Numbered from the stretch's first letter, positions 5,277 through 48,599 are shown. The stretch: 64,000 nucleotides of DNA from Anaerolineales bacterium (GCA_050012135.1 JBEKHT010000006.1:1798-65797), one strand, 5' to 3'. Notes: generated from the letters alone by a model not told the origin. Program-made: numbers and translations.

Positions 5277-6290
5277 TCAGGGCGTCCATCGATACTGGAG
5301 GGAAGGCTCCCAAAGGCGGTCGAGGCCCAGGGCCTGGGGGCTCAACGTATTCGCAATCGAGGAGATGTAACTCAAGAGCGATGGGCCTGGGCCGTAATGG
5401 ATCACGCGGGGCGTCCCGCTGATCTTACCGAGTTGCGCCGCCTTGGCGATTGCGTTCTCTTCGTACCCCAGGGCGTCGACGAGCCCAAGCTGCAAGGCCT
5501 GCTGGCCCGTGAAGACTCGTCCGTCCGCCAGTTGAAGGACCTCGTCTTTGGGCAGGTGGCGCCCGTTGGCAACCACGGAGACGAATCCAGCATACGCCTG
5601 GTCGACGATGCCCTGCATGATCGCCTTGTCGGCGTCGCTCATGGGCCGATAAGGGCTGCCCAGATCCTTTTCTGGGCCGGACTTTATCACCGTGAACTGC
5701 ACTCCGAGTTTGTCGAGCAACCCCTCTGCATTGGGGAACTCGCTGATCACCCCGATCGATCCCGTCAGAGAGTCTGGATTAGCGATGATGTAGTCGGCGG
5801 CCATGCTGACATAGTAGGCGCCCGAGGCCCCTTCGGCTCCCATGAGAACAACCAGCGGTTTCCCGCTGCTCTTCAGGGCATGGTAGATTTCGTCTGAGGC
5901 GACCACATCGCCCCCGGGGCTGTCCACCCGCAGGACGAGGGCTTTCACGTCGGGGTTGTTGGAGGCTGCCCGAACTTGGCTAATCAGATCCTCGGAGGCG
6001 GTTAGGCTGCCCGTTTGGAAGAGGCCGGCCGTCCCTCCGGTAATGACGCCGCGCAGCTCTAGTTCAGCGAGCGCGGGGCCCGTCGAAGGGCCGCTCGTCT
6101 GTTGCTCTTGGCTGGCAGCCATGGACGGGCTCAGGTTCCTGCCGAGCGCGTCTAGACCGAGGCTGGCCGCCAGCAGGGAGCCGAGGCAAAAGAACATTGG
6201 AAGTCCGAACCCAATCAGCACTCCGAACAGCGCCCAAATTGCCGAGCGATCTTTCCTCTCCTTCCTCCCGGATTCTTCAAGGCTTTCCAT
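5277..6290 (-). CDS. sppA: Signal peptide peptidase SppA (S49), 36K type
   Basis: N-terminal TM segment; LRVDSPGG, ASGAYY, TGSIGV and DGRVFTGQQA motifs. Confidence 0.93.
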   Translation of the reverse strand: MESLEESGRKERKDRSAIWALFGVLIGFGLPMFFCLGSLLAASLGLDALGRNLSPSMAASQEQQTSGPSTGPALAELELRGVITGGTAGLFQTGSLTASEDLISQVRAASNNPDVKALVLRVDSPGGDVVASDEIYHALKSSGKPLVVLMGAEGASGAYYVSMAADYIIANPDSLTGSIGVISEFPNAEGLLDKLGVQFTVIKSGPEKDLGSPYRPMSDADKAIMQGIVDQAYAGFVSVVANGRHLPKDEVLQLADGRVFTGQQALQLGLVDALGYEENAIAKAAQLGKISGTPRVIHYGPGPSLLSYISSIANTLSPQALGLDRLWEPSLQYRWTP

Positions 6291-6582
6291 TCTGCAGTAA
6301 CCTCCTTGGACCCCGCAGCTTAGCTAGTTGGAGCTCTCTTCATTATTATATAGGCCTCGGGTCGGTTGCGGGTCCCAAGAACCTCCGGACGAAGCTTCCT
6401 GGCGGGAGTCCTCCGCGCCTTGGACCGATCGGGAGGGTCCCCGTCGGGGACCCGCCATTCCCGCGGGGTGTGTACGCAGGGGTCAGAGTACTTTCCCGGA
6501 CGGAATCTGGATTCGCCAGGCTCCTCCAAATCCGGAGATTGCGACACGCCCAGTGGTGACATTTGTTATGGACGGTCCTGCT

Positions 6583-6611
6583 TTGACTCAATAGACTACC
6601 CGTGCTAGTAT
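6583..6611 (+). promoter_or_regulatory. Sigma70-type promoter for the nuo/atp membrane operon
   Basis: TTGACT-17 nt-TAGTAT with an extended -10 TG, about 100 nt upstream of nuoA. Confidence 0.6.
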
Positions 6612-6712
6612 GGCAGCGGTCGACCGCCGGGCTCCGCATCCCCTGCTGTTTCGGGGGGGCCGGCTGGGGGCCGAGGCTCCCTTGAACTCGACGATTGGAA
6701 GGAGTGGGCAGA

Positions 6713-7066
6713 TTGAACCCATGGATCTTCGTGGGTGTGTTCCTTCTCGTTGCTGGCGCGCTTCCCGCCTTCGCCTTGCTTTTCGCCAAGTACCTTGGCC
6801 CACGTAGGCCTGCACCGATCAAGTCAGAAACCTATGAGTGCGGCGTCGAAACCCACGGCCCCACTTGGGTCCAATTGAAAGCTCAGTACTACGTCTATGC
6901 ACTCGTCTTTGTTGTGTTTGACGTGGAACTGGTTTTCCTATTTCCTTGGGCCATCGTCTACGCAAGGTTGCCGCTTTACGTGGCCCTGGAGGGGGCGCTT
7001 TTCTTGCTAATCCTCGCCGGCGGGCTGGTCTACGTCTGGCGGAAGGGTGCGCTGGAATGGGCATGA
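6713..7066 (+). CDS. nuoA: NADH-quinone oxidoreductase subunit A
   Basis: KSETYECG loop, FVVFDVE and WRKGALEW; probable TTG start after AAGGAG. Confidence 0.95.
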   Translation: MNPWIFVGVFLLVAGALPAFALLFAKYLGPRRPAPIKSETYECGVETHGPTWVQLKAQYYVYALVFVVFDVELVFLFPWAIVYARLPLYVALEGALFLLILAGGLVYVWRKGALEWA

Positions 7067-7142
7067 GGATTTGTTGGAGGAAACCCACGCCTATCGTGAT
7101 GCGACACGATAGGCGCTTTTCTGTCTGCCGGAGGAGGCAGGC

Positions 7143-8390
7143 GTGATCCAGCCCGGCGATCTCATTGCCTCCCTGGGGTCATGGCTGCAAAGGTTTCTCC
7201 TTTCGCTTGGCCTCGCTCCCAGCCTGGTGTCTCTTGGGGTGGCGTTGCTGCCCGCTATTCTCCTGCCCGTCATCAGCCTGATGACGGCCATTCCCCTGAT
7301 TTGGCTCGAGCGCAAGTGGGTGGCCCGCCTCCAGGATCGGATCGGGCCGAATCGGGTCGGACCTTTTGGGGTATTCCAGGTCTTCGCTGACATGGTCAAG
7401 ATCTTCACCAAGGAAGACCTGATCCCGCAGGGCGCCGACAAGATCATCTTTAGCCTCGCCCCGGTCTTGGCCATGGCAGGGGTGATCGGGGTCTGGGCTG
7501 TGCTGCCGTTTGCGGCGGACGTCTACGGGGTTAATCTCAATGTGGGTGCCCTATATGTCATAGCGGTCGGCACTTTTGGCATGTTGGCGATTCTTCTCGC
7601 GGGCTGGTCCTCCAACAACAAGTATGCCCTTCTGGGTGCCTATCGCGCGGTGGCTCAGCTAATCAGCTACGAGGTCCCCATGGTGCTCACCCTGCTCGTC
7701 CCCGTGATGTTGGCGGGATCCATGGGACTCAATGACATAGTCCGGGCCCAAGGCAACGGATGGTTTGTGTTCCTTGCGCCGCTGGCGGCCATCATCTTCA
7801 TGATCGCCGCCCAGGCCGAGGTCGGTCGGGCACCCTTTGATCTGCTTGAAGCGGAATCCGAGCTGGTCGCAGGATTCAATATCGAGTACTCGGGGATGAA
7901 GTTCGGTTTCTTCTATGTGGCCGAATTCCTCCACTCCTTCACGTTTGGGGCCCTGGGGGCCACGTTCTTCCTCGGAGGTTGGTTGGGGCCCGGTTCCGAG
8001 ACCTTCCCGATGCTCGGGGTGGTTTATTTCCTGATCAAGAGTTTTGCCGTTTACTTCGTCTTCGTTTGGACTCGCGGGACGTTTCCTCGCATCCGTATCG
8101 ACCAGATGATTAACCTGAGTTGGAAACTCTTGACCCCCGCCTCTCTTGGTTTGGTCGCGCTGATTGCGGTGGTCCATCGGGCGACGCAGGCAACTCCCCC
8201 TCTGTTGCAAGCCGTGGTGCTGCTTGGCGCCAATCTGTTCGTTTTCTTCTGCGCTCTCTTGGTCATGCGTTCAATGGGCAGGATGGCGCGGGAGAGGTCA
8301 ACTGCTCCCCGCCCCGGATCCGGATCGGGAAAGACAACCGATCCGGGCCAAGGTGCGGTGGCGCGACCAGCCTCCGCCTCCGGCGACTAG
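7143..8390 (+). CDS. nuoH: NADH-quinone oxidoreductase subunit H
   Basis: ERK...QDRIGPNRVGPFG, ISYE, RAPFDLLEAESELVAGFNIEYSG and PRIRIDQ. Confidence 0.96.
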   Translation: MIQPGDLIASLGSWLQRFLLSLGLAPSLVSLGVALLPAILLPVISLMTAIPLIWLERKWVARLQDRIGPNRVGPFGVFQVFADMVKIFTKEDLIPQGADKIIFSLAPVLAMAGVIGVWAVLPFAADVYGVNLNVGALYVIAVGTFGMLAILLAGWSSNNKYALLGAYRAVAQLISYEVPMVLTLLVPVMLAGSMGLNDIVRAQGNGWFVFLAPLAAIIFMIAAQAEVGRAPFDLLEAESELVAGFNIEYSGMKFGFFYVAEFLHSFTFGALGATFFLGGWLGPGSETFPMLGVVYFLIKSFAVYFVFVWTRGTFPRIRIDQMINLSWKLLTPASLGLVALIAVVHRATQATPPLLQAVVLLGANLFVFFCALLVMRSMGRMARERSTAPRPGSGSGKTTDPGQGAVARPASASGD

Positions 8391-8404
8391 TCTTGGATGG
8401 GTTT

Positions 8405-8920
8405 ATGGCACTGGCGCAAATCCTGTTCCTGATCGTTGCGGCCCTGGGAGTGCTGGCGGGCCTGATGGTGGTCACCGTGCGAAATCTGCTCCATGCCGCC
8501 CTGTGGCTCATTGTCGCGCTGTTCGCTGTCGCCGTATTGTTTGCAATGCTTGACGCCGGCTTCTTGGCCGTGATCCAGGTCGTGATCTACATCGGTGCGA
8601 TCGCAATCTTGATTATCTTTGCCATCATGTTGACCCGTCGTGAGGCGCTGACGGCCGGGCCACAGGACAACCGGCTGTGGCCCGTGGCGGGCACCCTGTG
8701 CGCGCTTGTGTTCCTGGGATTGGCCTGGAGCGCATCGAATTTTGCCGGGGCGCAATCCGGCCCTGCAAAACTGCCCGCCAGCGACGCATTGGTCGCCCTG
8801 GGGACAGCCCTGGTTTCTCCCGATCAATATGTGGTTCCCTTCGAGGTGGCCTCGGTCCTTTTGCTGGCGGCTCTGATCGGGTCCGTCGCAATTGCGGGCG
8901 ATCGCAATCCATCCAAGTAG
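8405..8920 (+). CDS. nuoJ: NADH-quinone oxidoreductase subunit J
   Basis: RNLLHAALWL, QVVIYIGAIAIL and PFEVASVLLLAALIG; real start is the ATG at 8405 inside track ORF 8120..8920. Confidence 0.94.
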   Translation: MALAQILFLIVAALGVLAGLMVVTVRNLLHAALWLIVALFAVAVLFAMLDAGFLAVIQVVIYIGAIAILIIFAIMLTRREALTAGPQDNRLWPVAGTLCALVFLGLAWSASNFAGAQSGPAKLPASDALVALGTALVSPDQYVVPFEVASVLLLAALIGSVAIAGDRNPSK

Positions 8921-8976
8921 CGCGAGTAGCGTGCCGGAGGCGGCCGGCGGGGAGGTCCTGCGGCCGCAAGGAGAAG

Positions 8977-9285
8977 ATGGTCCCTCTCTCGTGGTATCTG
9001 GTTTTTTCTGCGGCCCTTTTCAGCCTGGGCCTATTCGGGGTTCTGGCGCGGCGCAATGCAGTCGCCATTCTGTTGGGCATAGAACTGATGCTCAACGCGG
9101 CGAATGTGAACTTAGTGGCCTTTTGGAGGTACATGGCCCCGGCCCGCATGGGGGGCCAGGTCTTTGTCGTGGTTGTGTTTGCGGTGGCGGCGGCGGAAGC
9201 CGCAGTCGGCTTGGCTCTCATCATCTCCTTCGCGCGCCTGAGGGGAAGTGTCGACGCGGACCAGGCGGATCTCCTCCGTGGTTAG
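8977..9285 (+). CDS. nuoK: NADH-quinone oxidoreductase subunit K
   Basis: RRNAVAILLGIELMLNAAN and VAAAEAAVGLA; ATG at 8977 inside track ORF 8677..9285. Confidence 0.95.
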   Translation: MVPLSWYLVFSAALFSLGLFGVLARRNAVAILLGIELMLNAANVNLVAFWRYMAPARMGGQVFVVVVFAVAAAEAAVGLALIISFARLRGSVDADQADLLRG

Positions 9286-9404
9286 AGCCGGCTCCTCGCC
9301 CGAGGAAAGGCCGCAGGCCAAGGCCCCTGGGAGGAGACTTGCGGGCGCATCCCATCGCGGATTCGCTCACGGCGGGGGCATGGTTCCGCGTTTGAGGCGG
9401 CACT

Positions 9405-11573
9405 ATGCACCCTGAACTTCTGACTTGGCTGATCCCTTTCCCGCCCCTCTTGGCCTTTTTCCTGATCCTGCTTCTAACCCGCCGCGATCGAGCCTTGAGT
9501 CACACGGTGGCCATCGCCCTCCTGGGCGTCTCGTGGGTCCTTTCGATGGTCGTTTTTGTCGTCGCGGTCACCACCCGGGACCTGGCCAGCCACCCAATTC
9601 AGGCGTCCCTGCCCTGGTTCCCCACCGGGGAGGGGGTCTTCTCGATCGGGATTCTCGTCGATCCTCTTTCGGCCATCACCTTGTTTTTCGTTGCCTGGAC
9701 ACTCTTGGCCATTTTTGTCTACAGTGTCGGATACCATAATTTCGGCCAGCCGCCCGGCGAGAAGGATGTCCCGGGGCTTCCCCCCCAGGGGGCCGTCGTC
9801 CAGGGAAGGGATGGGGGCGTGCATCGGGTTCCTTCGGTCGAGCCGCTCTATTCTCGCTTCTTTGCCTTTATCTCCCTTTTTGCGTTTGGAATGCTCTTGC
9901 TGGTGGTCTCTGACAATCTCCTGACCCTGTACATCGGGTGGGAGGTTATGGGCTTATGTTCCTATTTGCTGATCGGGTTCTGGTTTGGAAAGGACAGCGC
10001 CAAGCGAGCCGCGGTTAAGGCCTTCATGACCACGCGGATCGGGGACGTCTTCATGCTGCTGGGCTTGGCCTATTTGTACACGGAGGCCGGTTCCCTGTCC
10101 TTTGGAGTCCTCTTCTCGCCACCGACTCTTCAACGGCTGGCTCAGAGCCCTTCCTACATCCCCGGCCTTTCGGTCGCAGGATTGGCTGGTCTTTTTCTTT
10201 TCGCCGGGACGATCGGGAAGTCAGCGCAGTGGCCGTTGCACGTGTGGCTCCCCGATGCGATGGAAGGTCCCACGCCCGTGTCCGCCCTGATCCATGCGGC
10301 CACCATGGTTTCGGCAGGCGTCTATCTGATCCTGCGGGCTTTCCCTCTGCTTCGCCTGGGCTTGCAGAACGGCCCCTCGACTACCCTGACCGTCGTCGCC
10401 TTTGTGGGCGCGTTCAGTGCGCTGTTCGCGGCCACGATTGCACTTGCGCAGAATGACATAAAGCGCGTGCTGGCCTACTCGACGATCTCCCAGCTCGGCT
10501 ACATGGTGGCTGCCGTGGGAATGGGGGCCTACGTCGCGGCCGCGTTTCACCTGGTGATACATGCGTTTTTCAAAGCTCTGCTCTTCCTCGGATCGGGGGC
10601 CGTGATCCATGGCATGGAGCACGGGGCCCAACACACCGAGAATCACCGCCTGGATCTCCAGGACATGATGAATATGGGTGGGTTGCGCCGGAAGATGCCT
10701 CTCACATTCTGGACCTTTCTCTTGGGAGGCTTGGCGCTCTCTGGATTTCCGCTCCTGACAGCAGGATTCTGGTCAAAGGATGAGATCCTGGCGGAGGCCT
10801 TCGGGCGAGGGCAGCTGGCCGTTTTCCTGACATTGGCCGCCGCGGCTCTTCTCACCGCCTTTTACACCGCCCGTCAGATCACCTTGACCTTCCTCGGAAC
10901 CGCTCGCACCCAGGAGGCGGAGCACGCTCAGGAAGCCCCCTGGATGATGACGGCGCCTCTCATTCTCCTCTCGATATTCTCGGTGGCCGCCGGATGGGTG
11001 GGCATCCCAGAGCATTTTCCCGTTCTGGGTGGCTTGGTGCCAGACTGGTTTGGTGAGTTTGTGGGATCCGCCTTCGGCGAGAGCCCGTCATTTGCCTGGA
11101 CTCCGCTCCTGATTTCGGTGCTGGTCGCCGGCACGGGGCTGTTCCTGGGATGGTGGCTCTACCGGAAACAATCCCTTGCGGTCCCGGACCCTCTGGCCCG
11201 GGCCCTCGGCCCAGTCCATACGCTGCTGCGCAGGAAGTACTTCTTCGACGAACTCTACGATATCGTCCTGGTTCGCCCGGCAAGGTGGTTTGGGGAGGTC
11301 TTTACCTATCTCTGGCTCGATCGGGGCCTAATCGACGGCTGCCTGCATGCCATCGCTCGGGCCGCCCTTGGCCTAGGCAAGGCCTTTCGATACGGCTTTG
11401 ACTTGCCCATCGTCAACGGCTTCGGCGACTTGGTGGGCAAGACAACCAAGCAAGCCGGTCGCGTGCTGAAGGTTGTTCAGACGGGCCGGGTTCAGCAGTA
11501 TCTCCTCTTCGTGCTGATCAACGTTTTGGTCGCCAGCACGGTCCTGTATTGCCTACTGGTTTTCCGTCGCTAG
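9405..11573 (+). CDS. nuoL: NADH-quinone oxidoreductase subunit L (lengthened)
   Basis: WEVMGLCSYLLIGFW, GKSAQWPLHVWLPDAMEGPTPVSALIHAATMV and C-terminal QTGRVQQY. Confidence 0.96.
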   Translation: MHPELLTWLIPFPPLLAFFLILLLTRRDRALSHTVAIALLGVSWVLSMVVFVVAVTTRDLASHPIQASLPWFPTGEGVFSIGILVDPLSAITLFFVAWTLLAIFVYSVGYHNFGQPPGEKDVPGLPPQGAVVQGRDGGVHRVPSVEPLYSRFFAFISLFAFGMLLLVVSDNLLTLYIGWEVMGLCSYLLIGFWFGKDSAKRAAVKAFMTTRIGDVFMLLGLAYLYTEAGSLSFGVLFSPPTLQRLAQSPSYIPGLSVAGLAGLFLFAGTIGKSAQWPLHVWLPDAMEGPTPVSALIHAATMVSAGVYLILRAFPLLRLGLQNGPSTTLTVVAFVGAFSALFAATIALAQNDIKRVLAYSTISQLGYMVAAVGMGAYVAAAFHLVIHAFFKALLFLGSGAVIHGMEHGAQHTENHRLDLQDMMNMGGLRRKMPLTFWTFLLGGLALSGFPLLTAGFWSKDEILAEAFGRGQLAVFLTLAAAALLTAFYTARQITLTFLGTARTQEAEHAQEAPWMMTAPLILLSIFSVAAGWVGIPEHFPVLGGLVPDWFGEFVGSAFGESPSFAWTPLLISVLVAGTGLFLGWWLYRKQSLAVPDPLARALGPVHTLLRRKYFFDELYDIVLVRPARWFGEVFTYLWLDRGLIDGCLHAIARAALGLGKAFRYGFDLPIVNGFGDLVGKTTKQAGRVLKVVQTGRVQQYLLFVLINVLVASTVLYCLLVFRR

Positions 11574-11597
11574 GAGAGCAAAGGCCGGGTCTTGAGC

Positions 11598-13118
11598 ATG
11601 GATTTCCTGAATGCACACCTGCTTACCCTGATTCTCTTCACGCCCACCGTTGCAGCCTTGCTTGTGCTCCTGATCCCCGCCGGGCAGGTCAGGGTCATTC
11701 GCTGGGTGGCCTTCATCGGCAGCCTGGTCCCCTTGGGCCTTTCCGTGTTCCTTTGGTTTGGCTATCACCCGGCCCAGGCGGGCTTCCAGTTCCAGGAGTT
11801 CGTCCCCTGGTACCAGGCGATCGGAGCCAACTACCACCTGGGAGTGGACGGCATCTCCGTACCGATGGTCGTGCTCACGACCCTGCTGTCGCCCCTGGCG
11901 ATCCTCGTTTCCTTCAGCGTCCGCGAAAGAGTCCGCGGGTACATGGCCCTGTTCTTGCTCTTGGAAACAGGCTTGCTGGGTGTGTTCCTCTCGCTCGACC
12001 TCCTGCTTTTTTTCGTTTTCTGGGAGGCGGGGCTCGTGCCCATGTACTTCCTCATCAATCAGTGGGGAAGCGAGAACCGCAACTACGCCTCTCTCAAGTT
12101 CTTGATCTACACGATGGGAGGCTCCCTCGGCCTCTTGCTGGCAATCCAGATGATCCGCCTGGTGGTGGGCTCCTTTGACTTCCCGGTCTTGTATTCACAA
12201 TGGACCTCGCTGAGTGGCACCCTGTTCGGGATCCCGGTGGGGACGGTCAAAATCCTGGCGTTCTGGGCCTTCGTCATTGCTTTTGCCGTCAAGATCCCGA
12301 TCTGGCCCTTCCACACCTGGCTCCCGGATGCACATACCGAGGCTCCGACGGCCGCCTCGATCATTCTGGCTGGGGTGATGCTCAAGCTGGGGGCGTACGG
12401 GTTCCTGCGGCTTGTGCTGCCCCTCTACCCGCTCGAGGCTCACAACTTTGCAGGAGTGCTCGGGGCTCTGGCGGTCGCGGGGATCGTCTTGGGAGCGTTC
12501 GCCTCCTGGGGGCAAACAGACTTCAAACGGCTGGTCGCCTACTCTTCGGTCAACCACATGGGCTTCGTCGTCCTGGGGATCGCTGCCGCCGCGTGGGCCA
12601 GGGGCTCGGCCTCCAGCAGCGATGCGGTCCTGGCCCTGAACGGGGCCGTCCTGCAGATGTTCAACCACGGCTTGAGTGCGGCCGGCATGTTCCTGCTGGT
12701 GGGGGTGCTTTACGAGCGGACTCACACCCGCCAGCTTAACGACTACGGGGGACTGTTTCCGCTGGCCCCGCTGTACGGCGGGATTCTCATCTTCACCTCG
12801 ATGGGATCCCTCGGTCTCCCGGGTCTGGGTGGCTTCATCTCCGAATTCTTGGTGGTGCGAGGGAGTTGGCCGATTTTCACCCTGTATACCGCGATCGGGA
12901 TGATCGGGTTGCTGATCACTGGGGCGTACATCCTTAAAGCGGTTCAGAAGGTCCTGCACGGCCCCGTCAGCACTCGCTGGCAGGGGCACTCCTTGGAGAT
13001 GGGTGCGCGTGAAATAGTCGCGATTTCGCCCCTGATGATCCTGATGCTGGCCATTGGAATCTGGCCAGCCTGGATCCTGAACATGATCAATGCCGCGGTG
13101 ACCCGATTGATCGGTTAG
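11598..13118 (+). CDS. nuoM: NADH-quinone oxidoreductase subunit M (copy 1)
   Basis: LGVDGIS, FFVFWE, KIPIWPFHTWLPDAHTEAPT and AYSSVNHMG. Confidence 0.94.
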   Translation: MDFLNAHLLTLILFTPTVAALLVLLIPAGQVRVIRWVAFIGSLVPLGLSVFLWFGYHPAQAGFQFQEFVPWYQAIGANYHLGVDGISVPMVVLTTLLSPLAILVSFSVRERVRGYMALFLLLETGLLGVFLSLDLLLFFVFWEAGLVPMYFLINQWGSENRNYASLKFLIYTMGGSLGLLLAIQMIRLVVGSFDFPVLYSQWTSLSGTLFGIPVGTVKILAFWAFVIAFAVKIPIWPFHTWLPDAHTEAPTAASIILAGVMLKLGAYGFLRLVLPLYPLEAHNFAGVLGALAVAGIVLGAFASWGQTDFKRLVAYSSVNHMGFVVLGIAAAAWARGSASSSDAVLALNGAVLQMFNHGLSAAGMFLLVGVLYERTHTRQLNDYGGLFPLAPLYGGILIFTSMGSLGLPGLGGFISEFLVVRGSWPIFTLYTAIGMIGLLITGAYILKAVQKVLHGPVSTRWQGHSLEMGAREIVAISPLMILMLAIGIWPAWILNMINAAVTRLIG

Positions 13119-13220
13119 AGACGATCGGGAAAGTCGAGAGCGGTGGTTGAGGCGGTAGCCACACCCCTCCGAGGGACGGCCGAGCCGACCTGCACAGGGC
13201 CGAGTAGGTGAGGTAACCGG

Positions 13221-14690
13221 ATGTCGTTTCCGATTCTCAGTGTCATCGTTTTCACACCCATCGTCACCGCCCTCGTCATCCTGCTCCTTCCCGCCGAGAG
13301 GAAGCGGGCCATTCGCTGGACGGCCTTGGCCGGTGCCGTGCTGGCTCTGCTCCTTTCTGTGGTCACTTACTTCTCCTACGACATCCACGCCGGCGGGTAC
13401 CAGTTTGTCGAAAAAGTGCCCTGGGTGCCCGAATGGGGAATCTCGTATCACGTCGGGGTGAATGGGCTTAATCTGCCGCTCGTGTTGCTGACCGGGCTGG
13501 TCATGTTCACCGGTGTGCTCATTTCGTGGGGCATGGAAGAACGACCCCGCGAGTTCTTTGCCTTCCTTTTCATCTTGGCCACGGGGGTTTTTGGTGCGTT
13601 TGTATCGCTGGATATGTTCCAACTCTTCTTTTTCTATGAGATGGCGGTCTTCCCCATGTATTTGTTGATCTCCCTATGGGGCTGGCCCAAGATGCGCGAA
13701 TATGCCGCCATGAAGCTCACGTTGTATCTCTTCGTGGGTTCCATGCTGGCGCTGGTCGGTGCCCTGGCCATGTATTTCGCCTCGGGACTGCACACATTTG
13801 ACATGCTGGTTCTGGAGCATGCCGGGTTCACGGTTGCGTTCCAGCGGCTCTGGTTCCCGGTGGTCTTTTTGGGATTTGCCGTGCTGGGAGGCCTCTTTCC
13901 ATTCCACAACTGGAGCCCCGACGGCTATGCGGCGGCGCCTACCGCGGCTTCGATGTTCCACGCAGGGGTGCTGAAGAACCTGGGCGCATTTGCCGCCCTG
14001 CGGGTGGGGATCATGCTTCTGCCAGAGGGGGCGCGCTTTCACATGTCCTGGGTTATTCTCCTGGCCCTTATCAATGTGATCTATGCCTCGCTGATCGCAA
14101 TGGTACAGACCGACCTGAAATATGTCATTGGCTTTTCCTCGGTCTCGCACATGGGGCTCGTCATGCTTGGGCTGGCCTCCCTCTCCCCGCTTGGCTACCT
14201 GGGGGCCGGATTGCAGATGTTCTCCCACGGCGTGATGACGGCCCTTTTCTTTGCTGTGGTCGGCATGGTGTACGACCGTGCTCACACCCGCGAAATCCCC
14301 AAACTTGGCGGGTTTGCCAAAAAGATGCCGCTGGCAGCCATCGCCTTTATCCTGGGGGGCTTGGCCTCCATGGGCATGCCTGGACTCTCAGGATTCGTGG
14401 CAGAGTTCCCTCTTCTGCTGGGTGTCTGGCAAAGATACCCCCTAGTCGCCATCGTGGCCTGCGTCGGGGTTGTGGTCACCGCGGCCTACATCCTGCTCTT
14501 GATCCGCCGGGTGTTCTTCGGCACCATGCCGGCGGAATTGGAGCGGCAGGTCGGAGATATCACCGTGTTGGACAAGGTCGCGTTAGGGCTGCTGGCCTTC
14601 ATCCTGCTCGCGTTGGGGCTTTACCCGACCTGGATGGCCCCCCTCGTTCAGTCGGGCGTTGCCGGCGTAATGAGGCTTCTCGGTGCCTAA
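13221..14690 (+). CDS. nuoM: NADH-quinone oxidoreductase subunit M (copy 2)
   Basis: Second, divergent NuoM: FFFYE, PFHNWSPDGYAAAPT, SSVSHMG and GMPGLSGFVAE. Confidence 0.92.
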   Translation: MSFPILSVIVFTPIVTALVILLLPAERKRAIRWTALAGAVLALLLSVVTYFSYDIHAGGYQFVEKVPWVPEWGISYHVGVNGLNLPLVLLTGLVMFTGVLISWGMEERPREFFAFLFILATGVFGAFVSLDMFQLFFFYEMAVFPMYLLISLWGWPKMREYAAMKLTLYLFVGSMLALVGALAMYFASGLHTFDMLVLEHAGFTVAFQRLWFPVVFLGFAVLGGLFPFHNWSPDGYAAAPTAASMFHAGVLKNLGAFAALRVGIMLLPEGARFHMSWVILLALINVIYASLIAMVQTDLKYVIGFSSVSHMGLVMLGLASLSPLGYLGAGLQMFSHGVMTALFFAVVGMVYDRAHTREIPKLGGFAKKMPLAAIAFILGGLASMGMPGLSGFVAEFPLLLGVWQRYPLVAIVACVGVVVTAAYILLLIRRVFFGTMPAELERQVGDITVLDKVALGLLAFILLALGLYPTWMAPLVQSGVAGVMRLLGA

Positions 14691-14756
14691 GATGACCTTG
14701 GAAGAGTCTGCCTTTGGAGCGGGCCGCTTCGGATTGGCCCGAGGAAATGCGCGCTG

Positions 14757-16190
14757 ATGCCTGCACTGCTTGCGCTCATTCCTGAGATTGCGATCCTCGT
14801 TCTGGCCGTGTTGGTCATGGCCCTCGATCTCCTCTTGAGATCCCGTGGGGGCCGGCGGCTGGGACAGGTGACCGCGGCGGGGCTGGCGATCATTTTTGTC
14901 GTATCCCTGATCGCATCCCTGCGGCCCGGCCCAGCCCAGATCTTCGGCAGCATGCTCCGCTCCGACGCCCTGGCCCACGGATTTCGCCTCATCGTGTTGT
15001 TTGCCTCCATGATCACAGCCCTGATCTCGATGGATGTGCCTGGGGTTGGGGACCGGGGAGAGTACTACGGCTTGATGTTGGTCTCGACCCTAGGCATGGA
15101 TCTGATGGCCGCCTCGAGTGACCTGGTCATGCTTTACTTGGCGATCGAGACGACTTCCATTCCCTTGTATCTGCTTTCGGGCTATTTCCGGGGGGAGAGG
15201 CGATCGGTTGAGGCCGGCCTCAAGTACTTCCTGTTTGGGGCCGCGGCTTCGGCGGCCATGCTCTTCGGCTTCAGCTGGCTGTATGGGTTCTCGGGGGAAA
15301 CAAGCTTGGTCGGAATCGCGCAGGCGGCGGCCAGCGGTTCCTTGCCTCTGACTCTCTGGGTGGGCTCTGCGGTCCTGGTGCTGGTGGGTTTCGGTTTCAA
15401 GGTCTCGGCGGTCCCGTTTCATTTCTGGGCTCCGGATGTCTACGAAGGGGCGCCCACCCCGATCACCGCGTTCATCTCCACCGCCTCCAAAGCCGCGGGC
15501 TTCGCGGTGCTGGCGCGGGTCATGCTCAGCGTCTTCACCCCGGTGATTACCCCGTACTGGGGAGCGCTCATCGCCGCCATGGCGGTGGCCAGCATGACTC
15601 TAGGCAACATCCTGGCTTTGGCTCAGCAGAACCTGAAGCGGCTACTAGCCTACTCCTCCATTGCCCATGCGGGCTATGCCTTGGTGGGCCTTGCGGCTCT
15701 CTCCTCTATGGGCTTGGCGGGAACCATCTTCTATTTGGTGGCCTATGTCATCACGAACTTGGCCGCCTTTACCATTGTGATTGTGGTCTCCCGAACCGTG
15801 GGATCGGATGACGTCGCCCGCTTTGCCGGACTGAGCCGCCGGTCTCCAGGACTGGCTCTGGCCCTGCTCGTGTCCTTGCTCTCGCTGGCCGGGATCCCTC
15901 CCTTTGCCGGATTTGTGGGCAAGGTGTTTGTTTTCGCTGCGGCCGTGCAGTCGGGCTTGGTTTGGCTCGCCATCGTGGGGGTCCTCAACTCCATTGTCGG
16001 GCTGTACTACTACTTGATTGTCCTCAAGGTGGTCTACCTTAACCCGTCCGAAGACGAGGGCAAGCCAATGCCGATCCCGGTTCCCGCTCGCTGGGCTTTG
16101 GGCCTGACAATTGCTGGTATCCTTGGGGTCGGGCTGGTTTCGGGACCTTGGTTTGGCTGGGCCATGGGGGCCGCCCGCGTGCTCTTCTAG
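14757..16190 (+). CDS. nuoN: NADH-quinone oxidoreductase subunit N
   Basis: EAGLKYFLFG, FKVSAVPFHFWAPDVYEGAPTP, KRLLAYSSIAHAGY and GIPPFAGFVGK. Confidence 0.96.
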   Translation: MPALLALIPEIAILVLAVLVMALDLLLRSRGGRRLGQVTAAGLAIIFVVSLIASLRPGPAQIFGSMLRSDALAHGFRLIVLFASMITALISMDVPGVGDRGEYYGLMLVSTLGMDLMAASSDLVMLYLAIETTSIPLYLLSGYFRGERRSVEAGLKYFLFGAAASAAMLFGFSWLYGFSGETSLVGIAQAAASGSLPLTLWVGSAVLVLVGFGFKVSAVPFHFWAPDVYEGAPTPITAFISTASKAAGFAVLARVMLSVFTPVITPYWGALIAAMAVASMTLGNILALAQQNLKRLLAYSSIAHAGYALVGLAALSSMGLAGTIFYLVAYVITNLAAFTIVIVVSRTVGSDDVARFAGLSRRSPGLALALLVSLLSLAGIPPFAGFVGKVFVFAAAVQSGLVWLAIVGVLNSIVGLYYYLIVLKVVYLNPSEDEGKPMPIPVPARWALGLTIAGILGVGLVSGPWFGWAMGAARVLF

Positions 16191-16259
16191 CCTGCTCTGG
16201 TTGTGCCCGTTCGGAGAGTTCGCTCCTCCCGATTGACCGAGGGACGGCATTGTGTTCAA

Positions 16260-16586
16260 ATGAGCGACGTTGGACCGGAGGAGAATAGCGCCAGGCGCCG
16301 TCCGGATGGTTACGCGATCTGGGGTCGGATTGCCCAGGCGGTCGTCCGGGTAGCCCTGGCCACCTTTGCGGTTCTGGCGGTCGCCGTGGGCGGGGGATGG
16401 TGGCTGGACCTCCGCCTGGGTACGCGGCCGAGTTTCATGATCCTGTTTGTCCTGGTCAGCTTCCCGATCACGTTATTCCTTATCACTCGCATCGTCTATC
16501 GGACCGCGCGCCGATCGGACCCGGCTCGATCGGGGGGCCCCGACGGGGTGGGAGAGGATGACCGCCGCAACCTCAAGCAAACCTGA
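16260..16586 (+). CDS. AtpZ/AtpI-like small membrane protein (ATP synthase accessory)
   Basis: Two TM helices around GWWLDLRLGTRP (ATPase gene-1 type pattern); directly upstream of and overlapping atpB. Confidence 0.75.
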   Translation: MSDVGPEENSARRRPDGYAIWGRIAQAVVRVALATFAVLAVAVGGGWWLDLRLGTRPSFMILFVLVSFPITLFLITRIVYRTARRSDPARSGGPDGVGEDDRRNLKQT

Positions 16587-17553
16587 ATTGAAAAAACAGA
16601 GATGGGGAACGGCCATATGGCTCGTCCTCCTCTTCATCGTCTTAGGAACCGTAGGCGCGATCTTCTTTCCACCCATTCGGCCGAGCATTGAACTGGCCGG
16701 GGAGGAGCTCGGCCGGCCCCTGGTCACGCTGCCTGTGCTTGGGGCCATCGGCCTGACCAACACCTTGATCGCCACCCTCCTGATGGACCTGCTATTGCTC
16801 GGGTTGGTGGTCGCCTTCCAGCGAGCGGTCAAGGACGAGAACAGCATTCCGGGAGGCATCGTCGGTGCTCTGGAAGCGGCCCTGGAGTGGCTGTACCAGA
16901 TCGCCGAATCGACCGCGGGGAAGTGGGCGCGGGCCATCTTCCCGTTCATGGCGACGACGGTGCTGATGGTGTTGCTCGCGAACTGGATGGAGCTCATCCC
17001 GTTTGTAGATAGCTTCGGGCGCGTGGTGCCCGTCCAGTCAGGCCAAACCGGCTACCTCGTGCGTCCGTTGGGGCCGATCGAGGCTCTGGTGCAAACGCAA
17101 TCCGGGGCCGGTTCGGCCGAACGCTACGCGTTGATCCCCTACGTGCGGGTGGCTTCCACGGATTTGAACTTCACCATCGCGCTGGCGCTGGTGGTGATGA
17201 CCATGGTCCAGGTGATGGGCTTTCGCTCCCAGGGGTTTGGCTACCTGGGCAAATTCTTCCAATTCAGGAATCTGTTTCGCAAGCCATTCCTCGGCCTGAT
17301 CGACCTGTTCGTGGGTTTTCTGGAGCTGATCCAGGAGTTTTTCCGAGTGATCTCGCTCTCCTTCCGGTTGTTTGGGAATCTATTTGCGGGTTCGGTCTTG
17401 CTGATTGTCGTCGGAAGCCTGGTTCCCGTTGCCGCTCAGTCCGGCCTCCTGCTTTTTGAACTCCTGATCGGGCTCATCCAGGCCCTGGTGTTTGGAATGC
17501 TCACGCTGATCTTCATGTCTATGGCCACTGCGGGCCATGGATCGGAAGCCTGA
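16558..17553 (+). CDS. atpB: F0F1 ATP synthase subunit a
   Basis: STDLNFT, ISLSFRLFGNLFAG (conserved Arg) and IQALVFGMLT. Confidence 0.95.
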   Translation: MTAATSSKPELKKQRWGTAIWLVLLFIVLGTVGAIFFPPIRPSIELAGEELGRPLVTLPVLGAIGLTNTLIATLLMDLLLLGLVVAFQRAVKDENSIPGGIVGALEAALEWLYQIAESTAGKWARAIFPFMATTVLMVLLANWMELIPFVDSFGRVVPVQSGQTGYLVRPLGPIEALVQTQSGAGSAERYALIPYVRVASTDLNFTIALALVVMTMVQVMGFRSQGFGYLGKFFQFRNLFRKPFLGLIDLFVGFLELIQEFFRVISLSFRLFGNLFAGSVLLIVVGSLVPVAAQSGLLLFELLIGLIQALVFGMLTLIFMSMATAGHGSEA

Positions 17554-17622
17554 TTCCGCTGGGGAGGTCTCGGGCCCGGATGGGCCCTGCCAAGCCAACG
17601 AACCCATGGAGGACATGACACC

Positions 17623-17868
17623 ATGACGGCGGATGTCGCACTGATCTTGATCCGAGGGCTTAGGTTCCTGGGTGCCGCGGTGGCCATGACGGGTGCAATT
17701 GGAGCCGGACTCGGGGTGGGACTGATCGGCTATTCAGCTCTTCAAGGCATGGCGCGCAATCCGGAGGCGTCCGGCATGTTGCAGACCACCATGATCCTGG
17801 CCATTGCTTTGTGCGAGGCGATTGCCATCTACTGTCTCGTGGCGGCTCTGTTGATTCTGTTCGTGTGA
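17623..17868 (+). CDS. atpE: F0F1 ATP synthase subunit c
   Basis: GAGLGVG glycine motif, ARNPE loop and conserved Glu in ALCEAIAIY; no Na+-type Q/E-S/T signature, so probably H+-coupled. Confidence 0.95.
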   Translation: MTADVALILIRGLRFLGAAVAMTGAIGAGLGVGLIGYSALQGMARNPEASGMLQTTMILAIALCEAIAIYCLVAALLILFV

Positions 17869-17914
17869 AGGCTCTCGCCTGCCGTCCCGGCGGGATGCGG
17901 TGAGGAGCAGAGGC

Positions 17915-18655
17915 ATGCAAGCATTGGGTATCAATCTCGGCTACCTTCTGGTTCAGATCCTCAATTTCCTGATCATGCTGGTGATCCTGCGCAAGTGGGT
18001 CTACCCGCCCCTGCTTAAGATGCTGGAATCGCGGCGCCAGAAGATCGCTCAGAGCATGAGCGACGCTCGCGTGGTGGCCGAGGCCCGGGCGAATGCGGAG
18101 AAGGAGGCCGCGCGGGTTCTGGCCGAAGGCCAGCAGCAGGCGGCCCAGCGCCTGAAGGACACCACCGACCGCGCCGACGCGATCCTGCAGGAGATGCGCG
18201 CAGCCGTGCAGCGCGAACTCGAAGACGTGCGCAAAGCGGCCACCGCAGAAGCCGAGGCCGAACGCAACCGCATCCTGGCGGAACTGCGAGGAGAGATTGC
18301 AGGCTTGGCCATAGCGGCTGCCCAAAAACTCATTGGAGAGGTGCTGGACGAAGAACGCCAGCGGGAATTGATCAACAACTTCTTCAGCGGCGTCCGAAGT
18401 GGGAAAGTGGAAGTCCTTCAAGACATCTCCACCCTGCCGGGGGCCACGGCAGAAGTGGTTAGCGCTCTGCCTCTCACCGAGGCGGAAGAAGATGTGGTCC
18501 GCCGCGACATGGTGGCACGCATGGGGGGGAGCGCGACCCTCTCGTTCCGCGTCGACCCCACCATCCTGGGCGGCCTCAAGATCCGGATCGGAGACCGCGT
18601 TCTGGACGGATCCGTCGCTGGCCAACTGGGCAGCCTTCGCGAGTCTCTGCACTGA
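17915..18655 (+). CDS. atpF: ATP synthase subunit b fused to a delta (C-terminal) domain
   Basis: b-subunit N-terminus (QILNFLI..., coiled coil) followed by delta C-terminal motifs VVSALPL and VDPTILGGLKIRIGDRVLDGSV. Confidence 0.9.
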   Translation: MQALGINLGYLLVQILNFLIMLVILRKWVYPPLLKMLESRRQKIAQSMSDARVVAEARANAEKEAARVLAEGQQQAAQRLKDTTDRADAILQEMRAAVQRELEDVRKAATAEAEAERNRILAELRGEIAGLAIAAAQKLIGEVLDEERQRELINNFFSGVRSGKVEVLQDISTLPGATAEVVSALPLTEAEEDVVRRDMVARMGGSATLSFRVDPTILGGLKIRIGDRVLDGSVAGQLGSLRESLH

Positions 18656-18836
18656 GCCAGGAGGCCGTGAGTTTCCAGGATCTGGCGGATCATCCGGGCT
18701 GAGGACGGTCCCCGTAGGTTGAACGGCTCCGAGGCGAAGAAGGCCCGGAGCCTTTTCACTGTGCCTCCAGGACGGTTATACTCGGCTCGACCGGAAGAGC
18801 GGGCAACATCCTCCTGGGCCCTCGGAGTCGAGTGTA

Positions 18837-20390
18837 ATGGGAAGACAACTGCGAGATCTCTTATCCGGATTGGCGGGGGTGGCTGCGGGAAGCCTCCCGG
18901 ATTGCCTCGTGACGGGGGTGGTGGAAGACTCTCGGCGCGTTCTACCCGGATCGCTGTTCGTCGCCATCCCCGGGTCCGGAGTAGACGGCCACCGGTTCAT
19001 CCCGCAGGCCATCCAGGCCGGGGCTTGTGCGGTGGTCGGGCAGGAGCCCATCGGGGATCTCGGCATTCCCTACGTTCGGGTTGCCGATTCCCGCCGGGCG
19101 CTCAGCATTCTCGCGGCGGGTTGGTGGGGATTCCCGGCCCGCAAGATGGTGATGATCGGCGTAACCGGAACGGACGGGAAGACCACAACCTGCAGCCTGA
19201 TCTTCGAGATTCTCAAGCAGGGGGGCGTCTCGGCCGGGATGATCAGTACCGTTCATGCTCGGATTGGCCGAGAGGTCGTGGACACGGGTTTTCATGTGAC
19301 GACTCCCGGGGCTCCGGGGCTCCAGGCCCTTCTGGCCCGCATGGTTCAGGCCGGGATAACCCATTGCGTGCTGGAAGTGACTTCCCATGCCCTCGCCCAA
19401 CGTCGGGTGGAAGCCTGTGAGTTCGACATCGGCGCGGTCACGAACATCACCCGAGAGCACCTTGACTACCACGGTTCGTTCGAGGCCTACCGTGAGGCAA
19501 AATCGGGCCTGTTGGCCGATCTGGCCAACAGCTCTCCCAAGCCATACGCCTACAGGAAGCTGGCGGTGCTCAACCGCGAGGATCCCTCGTTTGAATTCCT
19601 CCAATCCAGATCGACGGCTGAGGTGCTCTCCTACGGCAGGTCGGGTCTCAGCCAGGTTCGCGGGACCGACATAAGCCTTGGCCCGGCCGGCTTGCAGATG
19701 CAAGTCCAGTTCTTGGACACAAGATTCGCCCTTCAAAGCCCCTTGCTGGGCGCGTACAACGCGTTCAATATCCTGGCGGCGGTCGGGGTGACCGCAGGCG
19801 CGTTGGGCCTGCCCGGGGAGACGGTCGCCGAGGGGGTGCATGCCCTCCGGTCTGTGCCCGGACGAATGGAGCTCATCGACCTGGGCCAAGACTTCACGGC
19901 CATCGTGGATTTTGCCCACACCCCCAATGCCCTGAAGGCCGCCTTGGAAGCTGCCCGGGGCCTGACCACCGGCCGAGTGATCGCGGTGTTTGGCTCGGCG
20001 GGGGTGCGCGACCGTGAAAAGCGCGGCTCGATGGCCGGGATCTCGATCGACCTTGCCGACTTCACCCTGCTCACCGCGGAGGACCCTCGCACGGAAGAGG
20101 TGAAGGAGATCCTGGCGGAGATGGCATCCGGCGCTCGGGGGAGAGGTGGGGTGGAAGGGAAAGACTTCTGGAAGGTTCCGGACCGCTCCCAGGCGATCTT
20201 GTCGGCGGTGCAACTCGCGCAGCCCGGGGATCTGGTCATCGTCTGCGGAAAGGGACACGAGCAGTCCATGTGCTTCGGCGAAGTGGAATATCCCTGGGAT
20301 GATCGCCTCGCGCTGCGGGCGGCCATTGCCGAGCGTCTCCACCTGGAGGGCTGGCCGATGCCGCGTCTGCCAACCTGGGGGACCGGCTAG
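18837..20390 (+). CDS. murE: UDP-N-acetylmuramoyl-tripeptide synthetase
   Basis: GVTGTDGKTTT P-loop, LEVTSH, EHLDYH, VDFAHTP and GKGHE. Confidence 0.93.
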   Translation: MGRQLRDLLSGLAGVAAGSLPDCLVTGVVEDSRRVLPGSLFVAIPGSGVDGHRFIPQAIQAGACAVVGQEPIGDLGIPYVRVADSRRALSILAAGWWGFPARKMVMIGVTGTDGKTTTCSLIFEILKQGGVSAGMISTVHARIGREVVDTGFHVTTPGAPGLQALLARMVQAGITHCVLEVTSHALAQRRVEACEFDIGAVTNITREHLDYHGSFEAYREAKSGLLADLANSSPKPYAYRKLAVLNREDPSFEFLQSRSTAEVLSYGRSGLSQVRGTDISLGPAGLQMQVQFLDTRFALQSPLLGAYNAFNILAAVGVTAGALGLPGETVAEGVHALRSVPGRMELIDLGQDFTAIVDFAHTPNALKAALEAARGLTTGRVIAVFGSAGVRDREKRGSMAGISIDLADFTLLTAEDPRTEEVKEILAEMASGARGRGGVEGKDFWKVPDRSQAILSAVQLAQPGDLVIVCGKGHEQSMCFGEVEYPWDDRLALRAAIAERLHLEGWPMPRLPTWGTG

Positions 20391-20497
20391 GTTCCAAGCG
20401 CGAGCGGGCCGCGTCTCTCTCCCCGCATGGACCACCTTCGCGGGTCCGCTGAGGTGACCCGGCCTCGAAGGGAGGCTGTCGCCGGAATCCGAGTAAA

Positions 20498-20527
20498 TTG
20501 ACAGGGACCTTTCAGGTGTGATAAACT
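20498..20527 (+). promoter_or_regulatory. Sigma70-type promoter upstream of the SAM riboswitch
   Basis: TTGACA-18 nt-TAAACT with an extended TG. Confidence 0.55.
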
Positions 20528-40324: not shown

Positions 40325-40882
40325 TCAGCAGGCGTCCTGAGGCTCAGAGCGGCCTGCGCCTGGCTGGCTCTCCCCTCCGGAATCTCCAGGCTCGCTTGAG
40401 GGACTCCTGGGCAATAGTTGTTGAAGCAGACTCTGCAGCAAGTCGATGGCCGCCTCGACCGGAGGGCTCAGGGAGGCGCCGACGGCGGTCGCCAGGGGCT
40501 GCACTCCCAGGAGAAAAACTTCCGCGTGGGTCTCGCTCTGGATGAAACGGGCAGAGAGGCTTAGGCTGGCACTGTGCGTGGACAGACCCGTCCCGCCGAG
40601 GTTGTCCGCTTCAACGATCGCCATATCCCCGGGCTGGAGGCCCAATTCCACCGCATCGACGATCATGACCACTTGGGGTTCGGCGGCCACGATCGTGCCC
40701 AGATAGTTCTCGGGGACCTCTTCCGCATTTATGACCGTCGCGCGCACATTGGCCTGCAACCGCCTCGCCAGGGAGGGTCCGAAGCCGTCGTCACCTCGCA
40801 ATGGGTTGCCGACACCCAAGATCACGGCCTTCCTGGCCTCGAGCCTGTTGCGCAGGGCTTCCAATATGCCGATGCCGGACAT
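40325..40882 (-). CDS. hycI: Hydrogenase maturation protease (HycI-like)
   Basis: GVGNPLRGDDGFG, VPEN, IVDA and STH motifs; last gene of the hydrogenase operon. Confidence 0.88.
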   Translation of the reverse strand: MSGIGILEALRNRLEARKAVILGVGNPLRGDDGFGPSLARRLQANVRATVINAEEVPENYLGTIVAAEPQVVMIVDAVELGLQPGDMAIVEADNLGGTGLSTHSASLSLSARFIQSETHAEVFLLGVQPLATAVGASLSPPVEAAIDLLQSLLQQLLPRSPSSEPGDSGGESQPGAGRSEPQDAC

Positions 40883-41072
40883 GCCTTTGTGGAAAGAAGC
40901 GAACAGGGAAGATCCGCGAATCTCAACGGCTACAACCCTCTCGATCGCATTGATCGACCGATCGAGGCGGACCCAAAGGGTGGCCTTTAGTTTCTCAACC
41001 TCCCCCGAACGTTTAACCGCCACTGCGGAGAGGCTCTGACGGGACCCACGGCTTGCGGGGATCGAGGGCCGG

Positions 41073-43472: not shown

Positions 43473-43477
43473 GTCCC

Positions 43478-44890: not shown

Positions 44891-44900
44891 GGTTTATCCT

Positions 44901-45842: not shown

Positions 45843-45920
45843 AGGTCTTCCTTCGTGGGAATGAGCGCCCGCGTTCGTGGCGAAGTCATGACCGGATCTG
45901 CCGGAAGCCAGCGAGACGTC

Positions 45921-46376: not shown

Positions 46377-46378
46377 GA

Positions 46379-46912: not shown

Positions 46913-46914
46913 TG

Positions 46915-48582: not shown

Positions 48583-48599
48583 CCGTCGACGATCTCCTT

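Follow-up and report, generated by a model that had tools for sequence, protein, structure and literature searches.

A lineage-typical cluster of complex I membrane-arm and ATP synthase Fo genes in an Anaerolineales bacterium, with soluble subunits encoded elsewhere in the genome

Cultured Chloroflexi such as Anaerolinea thermophila have been described as carrying complex I genes in the order nuoL-M-M-N, with nuoB, C, D and I apart from them and nuoC fused to nuoD (McGonigle 2020, citing Chadwick, Hemp, Fischer & Orphan 2018, ISME J 12:2668; PMC7117926), whereas Chloroflexus has nuoB, C and D inside its own cluster of this '2M' type (Kawai 2021; PMC8004040). Divided loci are also known for the ATP synthase: in Rhodobacter and Rhodospirillum the Fo genes (atpIBEXF) and the F1 genes (atpHAGDC) of one enzyme lie apart, and a survey of such splits listed the Chloroflexi atp locus as unsplit (Koumandou & Kossida 2014; PMC4154653). 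In the Bacillus cereus group, an atp cluster, an 11-subunit nuo operon without NuoEFG and a Mur gene (murA) adjoin, both operons being complete and atp standing first (Moparthi & Hagerhall 2011; PMC3144371). Here we describe a run of nuo and atp genes in a 64,000-nt stretch of DNA (the window) from contig C6 of a 188-contig metagenome assembly of an Anaerolineales bacterium of peat or wetland (97% complete, 3% contamination). The run holds the membrane genes of both complexes, with nuo first, and none of the soluble ones. It consists of 12 intact, co-directional genes at 6695-18655 on the plus strand, each supported by a Pfam match, and is itself followed by murE:

6695-7066, plus strand: nuoA (PF00507, E 3.6e-33; ratio of nonsynonymous to synonymous substitution rates, dN/dS, 0.07 versus the same-genus genome G001)
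7143-8390, plus strand: nuoH, an open reading frame (ORF) of 415 aa with a C-terminal extension past the Pfam domain (PF00146, E 1.8e-111)
8405-8920, plus strand: nuoJ, starting 14 nt past the nuoH stop (PF00499, E 6e-34)
8980-9285, plus strand: nuoK (PF00420, E 8.7e-24; relatives align from residue 1 of the chosen start)
9405-11573, plus strand: nuoL, 722 aa, with a longer lateral helix (PF00361)
11592-13118, plus strand: nuoM1, a canonical-like NuoM (PF00361 and PF01059; FAVK motif kept)
13221-14690, plus strand: nuoM2, an extra NuoM of the 2M type (PF00361; 35% identity to nuoM1)
14757-16190, plus strand: nuoN (PF00361, E 1.1e-76)
16260-16586, plus strand: atpI/atpZ-like gene for a small membrane protein of the ATPase_gene1 family, 108 aa (PF09527, E 3.9e-7)
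16588-17553, plus strand: atpB, Fo subunit a, 321 aa (PF00119; TTG start read from the sequence)
17623-17868, plus strand: atpE, c subunit, the sole copy in the genome (PF00137; six-frame family search)
17915-18655, plus strand: atpF/H, a fusion of b with delta's C-terminal domain, 246 aa, without the delta N-terminal domain (PF00430, and PF00213 positions 104-172 of 172)
18837-20390: murE

An earlier note on this DNA, made from the sequence alone, had reported this gene run, the gaps of 76 nt (nuoA/nuoH) and 14 nt (nuoH/nuoJ) and the lack of soluble genes, and the Pfam-backed gene calls bore it out. No ORF in the cluster gaps matched nuoB, C, D or I or an F1 gene, no nuoB, C, D, I, E, F or G or F1 gene lies within 6695-18655, and murE stands downstream in place of any F1 gene. 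Very probably, the cluster is a membrane operon typical of its lineage, combining the arm of a NuoEFG-less complex I of the 2M type with the Fo and stator part of the only ATP synthase of the cell, the soluble partners being supplied from contigs C47 and C48. The membrane arm (NuoA, H, J and K, a NuoL with a long helix, NuoM1, NuoM2 and NuoN) would be made from the cluster, and the AtpI/Z-like protein, a, c and the fusion of b with the delta C-terminal domain (b-deltaC) would be encoded directly downstream of nuoN. NuoB, NuoCD and NuoI would then be contributed by C47, and alpha, gamma, beta and epsilon by C48, where their genes lie between ruvA and mreB. Assembly of complex I and of F1Fo is modular, and each enzyme would be put together from a separately encoded soluble module and a membrane module made from the window.

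The genes for these soluble modules were found at two loci. Contig C48 carries, in order, yebC, ruvC, a RuvA-like ORF, atpA, atpG, atpD, atpC and mreB. We considered whether the neighbour upstream of atpA might be a gene for delta's N-terminal domain (delta-N) and rejected it; judged by eye, without a profile scan, it looks RuvA-like. Contig C47 carries an IscX-like gene, nuoB, a fused nuoCD gene, a NuoI-like protein of the 2x[4Fe-4S] type, a 113-aa ORF and an Mrp/NUBPL-like Fe-S ATPase, with the Q-module genes placed as follows:

C47 17146-17847: nuoB
C47 15407-17149: fused nuoCD
C47 14783-15385: NuoI-like gene

This Q-module cluster (C47 13332-18065, locus L020) is flanked by the IscX-like gene (PF04384) and by the Mrp/NUBPL-like P-loop carrier (PF10609). 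The 113-aa ORF between nuoI and the Fe-S carrier is conserved and belongs to no Pfam family, and the six genes have the same order in the relative G021. Mitochondrial NUBPL/Ind1 is a complex I assembly factor. The earlier note had offered two explanations for the headless appearance of the operon, and with nuoB-CD-I on C47 and atpA-G-D-C on C48 the first of these holds, by which membrane and soluble subunits are distributed over different operons of the genome.

The second explanation was that the cluster is a spare, interchangeable set of membrane modules docking onto shared heads, by which stoichiometry would be re-tuned or a distinct membrane domain served. When the genome was searched with tblastn, atpI, atpB, atpE and atpFH matched only the window copies. 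Six-frame Pfam searches returned one gamma and one c subunit, with alpha and beta on C48 only; the remaining (fourth) PF00006 match, tried as a second ATPase, was rejected, as it is Rho. Thus, since there is no other atpB, atpE or atpF and a single F1 set, the Fo genes of the window are not a second set: the genome holds one rotary ATP synthase, and they are its only Fo genes. For complex I, a separate nuo set of the 14-subunit type was found on C39 (nuoA-B-CD-E-F-G-H-I-J-K, to the contig end), C10 (nuoL-M) and C136 (nuoN); NuoH of the window is 51% identical to the canonical NuoH on C39, and NuoM1 42% identical to NuoM on C10. The presence of two sets of complex I membrane genes and of one NuoEFG set, which makes sharing of the N module conceivable, would suit interchangeable modules. 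However, the canonical set has its own membrane genes and each arm its own Q module (C39 and C47), the C47-type module was lost together with the arm in the relative G005 (see below), and the atp genes are single. We regard the spare-set explanation as very improbable. This most exciting reading of the earlier note is to be dropped, because the headless look has an ordinary explanation, which for complex I is already published.

The canonical nuo set itself seems scattered in this genus. The nuoL-M pair on C10 stands alone between DUF3109 and pgi, nuoN starts contig C136, and on contig C9 of G001 nuoCD and nuoN lie too near each other to leave room for nuoL-M.

Lineage-typical organization of the cluster was evident from its relatives. 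We examined 30 of them, comprising 2 congeners, 16 further members of the family and 12 genomes from other families of the order. In 25 of the 30, across 13 families, nuoN precedes atpB by 0.2-1 kb and shares its strand. Two of the other five have the genes on separate contigs, atpB at most 355 nt and nuoN at most 153 nt from the contig start, respectively; the rest are a 72% complete genome in which nuoN stands at the end of a contig and atpB was not found, G005, and an 87% complete genome with neither gene. When one public genome per species was scanned with an alignment of the fusion protein, 80 loci were returned, all of them matching that protein and nearly all labelled Anaerolineales, Anaerolineae or Chloroflexota; Thermanaerothrix, Bellilinea, Leptolinea, Longilinea and Anaerolinea are among them. 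In 65 of the 67 public loci with at least 2.5 kb upstream, nuoN adjoins atpB, and both nuoM genes are present in 57 of the 59 with at least 6.5 kb upstream. Among the 66 loci with at least 2 kb downstream, murE follows within 1.5 kb in 55, and atpA or atpG was found 3' of the fusion gene in none. One full-cluster locus is filed under a Methanosarcinales metagenome-assembled genome, probably by a binning error.

A class-wide sample placed this layout among others. Matches to atpB at E <=1e-25 were obtained in 64 of 111 genomes (that of the window included), and 40 of the other 63 loci were fetched. The layout of the window (type A) was found at 12 class-level loci, one with a single nuoM, and two more short loci carry the fusion. 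In type B (2 loci) the nuo arm is directly followed by a complete atpB-E-F-H-A-G-D-C, and in type C (24 loci, of which 19 offer 2.5 kb or more upstream) a complete atp operon has no nuo membrane gene upstream; one type C locus has a C47-type nuoB-CD-I 1.8 kb upstream of the atp operon. An AtpB tree of 45 rows was built to see whether the type with the split and the fusion had a single origin; 21 of its 42 inner branches are open, and the type-A label needs 5 changes, but only 1 is forced by the starred branches.

Compared with G001, every structural gene of the nuo and atp groups had a dN/dS within 0.04-0.13, and murE had 0.14, in agreement with the suggestion of the earlier note that selection rather than decay accounts for the operon. 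The atpI-like gene is weakly constrained (dN/dS 0.71, calculated over an extended ORF from 16203). In a metagenome assembly of 188 contigs with 3% contamination, the cluster might be suspected to be an artefact of assembly or binning, or a remnant in decay that has been stripped of its soluble genes. However, 6000-20500 is covered from end to end by single contigs from two sequencing runs, with 0-1 difference, and each cluster junction is bridged by contigs from two more runs (these runs may include the source sample); the gene order recurs in dozens of independent assemblies, including the 65 of 67 public loci, relatives of isolates among them. The check for an assembly artefact thus revealed none. 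As for decay, the ORFs are intact and their dN/dS is low, whereas the truly decayed G005 shows a frameshifted chimera instead. Artefact and decay are therefore hardly credible. The arrangement is typical of the lineage and under purifying selection, neither a spare set nor a product of decay; since relatives routinely have the split layout, it is, in the earlier note's own terms, only a rearrangement.

The partner of the membrane arm was suggested by co-occurrence. A nuoN of the 2M type is present in 28 of the 30 relatives, as is a nuoCD of the C47 type, and G005 (99% complete) has neither. At the syntenic place in G005 we observed an S49 peptidase gene on the minus strand, a frameshifted nuoA'-'nuoN chimera composed of the 5' part of nuoA and the 3' end of nuoN (locus L158, 9846-10241), atpI-B-E-FH and murE. 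G005 thus represents a natural deletion of nuoH through nuoM2; the Q module was lost too, and the atp genes kept the same region ahead of them. In G021 the six genes iscX-nuoB-nuoCD-nuoI-ORF-NUBPL precede nuoA at a distance of 4.5 kb, sharing its strand. We infer that the Q module of C47 pairs with the membrane arm of the window.

The complex I part of the cluster itself has the marks of the published Chloroflexi 2M arrangement, to which it belongs. Two adjacent nuoM paralogues, both matching PF00361 and 35% identical, stand between nuoL and nuoN, nuoE, F and G are missing from the cluster, and nuoB, the fused nuoCD and nuoI are at the separate C47 locus. The C-terminal region of NuoL that forms the amphipathic lateral helix is 28 residues longer than in the other NuoL of the genome and about 27 residues longer than in NdhF1 of T. 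elongatus, a length suggesting that the helix spans one more antiporter-like subunit. For the motif residues we took the roles from Escherichia coli NuoM, the Lys of the FAVK motif presumably being the partner, on transmembrane helix (TM) 7, of the Glu on TM5. All four motif residues are kept in NuoM1. NuoM2 keeps the FWE-type Glu and the GEF-type Glu, and its second Lys is shifted by one position, as in NuoN; however, Leu replaces the FAVK-motif Lys that NuoM1, NuoN and canonical NuoM keep. Among 85 NuoM2 orthologues, the FA(V/I)K-motif position is Leu in 81, Thr in 2 and Lys in 2. The 2M accounts, like the window, feature two nuoM genes, no nuoEFG, nuoB/CD/I apart, a fused nuoCD and a longer NuoL helix; the excerpts of them used here carry no mention of Fo genes at the 3' end of the cluster or of the NuoM2 Leu at the motif Lys position (PMC7117926, PMC8004040).

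The earlier note had also placed the whole run behind one sigma70-like promoter. The following candidate transcription signals were found:

6583-6611, plus strand: sigma70-like promoter candidate, TTGACT-17-TAGTAT with a TG extension (consensus scan)
7088-7125, plus strand: 11-bp GC-rich hairpin followed by a CUUUUCUGUC tract in the nuoA-nuoH gap, terminator- or attenuator-like
7123-7142, plus strand: second small hairpin, masking GGAGGAGG ahead of nuoH
18724-18760, plus strand: imperfect hairpin followed by UUUUCAC, 3' of the fusion gene, a weak candidate (fold of 18640-18840)
18753-18782, plus strand: promoter-like site ahead of murE, a weak candidate (consensus scan)

The promoter candidate sits about 84 nt upstream of nuoA, and its -35 and extended -10 boxes are kept in two same-genus genomes while the flanking sequence varies. 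This conserved site, gaps of at most 119 nt and the abutment of the atpI-like stop codon and the TTG start of atpB (16588, 1 nt past that stop) fit one transcript, and the atp genes would then be transcribed from the nuoA promoter. The hairpin between nuoA and nuoH folds better than expected (z -3.97; 0 of 200 shuffles equalled it) and recurs in three relatives (G001, G002 and G004); in G023 and G021, which belong to two further families, hairpins of differing sequence followed by a T-run occupy the same position. We interpret it as a possible attenuator or processing/stability element, because there is no space for a new promoter before nuoH. At the other end, the imperfect hairpin with UUUUCAC may mark the end of the transcription unit; the fold of the whole 18640-18840 stretch was no better than that of shuffles (z -1.28). 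Thus, the promoter-like site of the earlier note was recovered and is conserved, but a single uninterrupted transcript is not assured, because of the strong hairpin and U-rich tract in the nuoA-nuoH gap.

Several observations weigh against the cluster being, as we propose, a complete membrane operon served by C47 and C48. The nuoA-nuoH hairpin, being strong, conserved in position and U-rich in its tail, could terminate or attenuate transcription, which makes one promoter for all 12 genes uncertain. Since the motif Lys is missing from NuoM2, its role as a full extra pump is uncertain. Because the genome has a single NuoF, the NuoEFG-less enzyme might conceivably share the N module with the canonical complex I. 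G020 (97% complete) has the arm-atp cluster, yet a C47-type fused nuoCD was not found in it with this query, the best nuoCD match being 42% identical and containing an internal stop. Finally, co-occurrence among related genomes is counted over samples that are not independent.

G020 would fit an arm that stands free as a cation/proton antiporter of the Mrp kind, or one that works for a different redox head, for which the formate hydrogenlyase encoded 22 kb downstream is a candidate. In Mrp, antiporter-like subunits can work without a redox module, and a group-4 hydrogenase cluster is present in the same window. However, the subunits forming the quinone-site and E-channel interface of complex I (NuoA, H, J and K) have all been kept under purifying selection, the hydrogenlyase cluster encodes NuoH-like and antiporter-like subunits of its own, and G005 has lost both the arm and the C47 module, which are near neighbours in G021. 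We therefore consider a free-standing or otherwise-headed arm improbable, and pairing with the C47 Q module remains the reading that we prefer.

The hydrogenlyase-type cluster (40325-51207, minus strand) is a third NuoB/CD/H-like group of this genome. It encodes a molybdopterin formate dehydrogenase, two 4Fe-4S proteins, a [NiFe] large subunit of the fused NuoCD-like type, a small subunit resembling NuoB, a subunit resembling NuoH, two antiporter-like proteins, of which one has 907 aa, and a HycI protease. An in-frame TGA, probably encoding selenocysteine, interrupts the formate dehydrogenase within ...IDHCARL-TGA-HSPTVAGL....

With respect to the ATP synthase, the stator is unusual. The fusion protein matches PF00430 at residues 16-145 and the OSCP profile at positions 104-172 of 172 only. 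The genome has one OSCP match, covering the C-terminal part of the profile only; no other OSCP match at E <=1, and hence no complete delta/OSCP, was found in the six frames of the 97% complete genome, nor was a second b-like gene found in it. The AlphaFold2 (AF2) model of the fusion protein (mean predicted local distance difference test score, pLDDT, 80.9) consists of a helix at 8-143, a short helix, a disordered linker and a domain of 4 strands and 2 helices at 178-245, with no helical bundle. Among solved chains, residues 1-148 of the fusion matched b of Chloroflexus aurantiacus, and its delta part matched residues 86-152 of Chloroflexus delta and residues 6-73 of the engineered deltaDeltaN-alpha chain 9jc1_I. 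By fold, the whole model also resembled V-ATPase E subunits. The a subunit (321 aa) aligned end to end with that of Chloroflexus aurantiacus, its best solved relative, long loop included (E 2e-39). The fusion protein is conserved in length (234-253 aa) at 12 of the 14 class-level loci, and ORFs of 221 and 296 aa were called at the remaining two. Types B and C have one gene for b and another for delta.

The alpha subunit encoded on C48 has an insertion of about 50 residues (YVIVPK...VDGKVY.GPL...) after the RLLERAA(K/R)L helix and before the GGSLTALP strand:

C48 10904-12568 (locus L021): alpha with insertion; also at loci L148-L152 and L067

The insertion was present in 6 of 6 type-A genomes, which have the b-deltaC fusion, versus 1 of 20 type B/C loci, which have a separate delta. 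The N-terminus of alpha is ordinary (MSDLGKQI...), with no C-terminal domain of delta (delta-C) fused there. When alpha (554 aa, 5-row alignment) and b-deltaC residues 60-246 were predicted as a complex, the score was 0.03, which speaks neither for nor against a complex, and the AF2 model of alpha from a 5-row alignment had a mean pLDDT of 46.2, so that the position of the insertion could not be read from it.

The closest solved relative of a, b and delta-C is the Chloroflexus ATP synthase (PMC12002316; PDB 9itj). Zhang et al. (2025; PMC12002316) described two stalks and two a subunits in that enzyme, attributed them to a shortened delta-N, and defined delta-N as residues 1-85. There, delta is separate and its shortened, dimerising delta-N joins the two stalks, whereas the window encodes no delta-N and has delta-C joined to b; the aligned sequence of the window lacks the Cys pair that Chloroflexus has in its a-subunit loop. 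Ueno et al. (2025; PMC12229609) deleted delta-N from the Bacillus PS3 enzyme and fused delta-C to alpha, obtaining up to three stalks, three a subunits and an H+/ATP of 5.8, and pointed to natural delta-alpha fusions in Acidaminococcus. Like the engineered deltaDeltaN-alpha (PDB 9jc1) and the natural fusion of Acidaminococcus fermentans, the fusion in the window lacks delta-N and retains the part corresponding to their residues 105-178; they carry delta-C on the N-terminus of alpha, whereas here it is on the C-terminus of b, and alpha has the internal insertion. For the A. fermentans enzyme, multiple stalks are a prediction. The mycobacterial b-delta protein (AtpH; PDB 7njk, 7jg5), the top structural match of the model, likewise has b fused N-terminally to delta, but it is about 445 aa long, contains a complete delta and is accompanied by a separate b', whereas the window has a 246-aa fusion without delta-N and a single b-like gene. 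In the split atp loci of other phyla, delta is whole and lies with F1, or the locus is divided at another point (PMC4154653). Beside the Chloroflexus and PS3 forms, the b-deltaC fusion of Anaerolineales represents a third solution, with delta-C carried on b.

A literature search gave no account of the nuo-atp cluster or the b-deltaC fusion in Anaerolineae (Chadwick 2018 being known to us through citing papers only), nor of a fixed nuo-Fo junction, a b-delta fusion lacking the whole of delta-N or a linked alpha insertion of about 50 residues. Thus, as far as we searched, the complex I half of the cluster was already known, and the nuo-Fo junction and the delta-N-less stator are undescribed. An order-wide, fixed cluster of membrane genes, with soluble modules elsewhere beside Fe-S assembly genes, offers a natural case for modular assembly and membrane insertion shaping operons.

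The stator lacks the very domain that two 2025 studies call the limiter of stalk and a-subunit number (PMC12002316, PMC12229609). By analogy with them, it is a tentative idea, which we think rather unlikely to be right, that the Anaerolineales F-ATP synthase, having no delta-N cap and a delta-C on each b, could carry two or three stalks, as many a subunits and a raised H+/ATP, in the same unit as a 2M complex I. Each b chain would end in its own head-binding delta-C domain, resembling the E subunit of V/A-ATPases, and the lineage-specific alpha insertion perhaps helps such a multi-stalk enzyme. If true, it would be a natural counterpart of the engineered enzyme reached by a different fusion (delta-C on b, not alpha), a single transcription unit would govern how many protons are pumped per electron pair as well as how many are used per ATP, and this would suit life at low proton-motive force in anoxic peat. 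The earlier note's joint tuning of H+/e- and H+/ATP would thus survive, speculatively, on grounds other than its own, namely the 2M arm and the delta-N-less stator. Since cultured relatives exist (Anaerolinea thermophila, Thermanaerothrix), the occurrence of natural multi-stalk, high-H+/ATP F-ATP synthases beyond Chloroflexus is a directly testable question.

Some relatives showed additional genes near the fusion gene. In the public set (loci L088, L123, L132, L127 and L083, the locus filed under Methanosarcinales included), three relatives have, at 3-6 kb downstream of this gene, paired matches with about 29% identity to AtpD, which we would guess to be A and B subunits of the V/A type, and in one relative NuoE/F/G-like genes separate the fusion gene from murE. 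In G030, a relative with a complete genome of 6.4 Mb, an insert of about 1.7 kb parts atpE from the b-deltaC gene (locus L156, 13461-15133).

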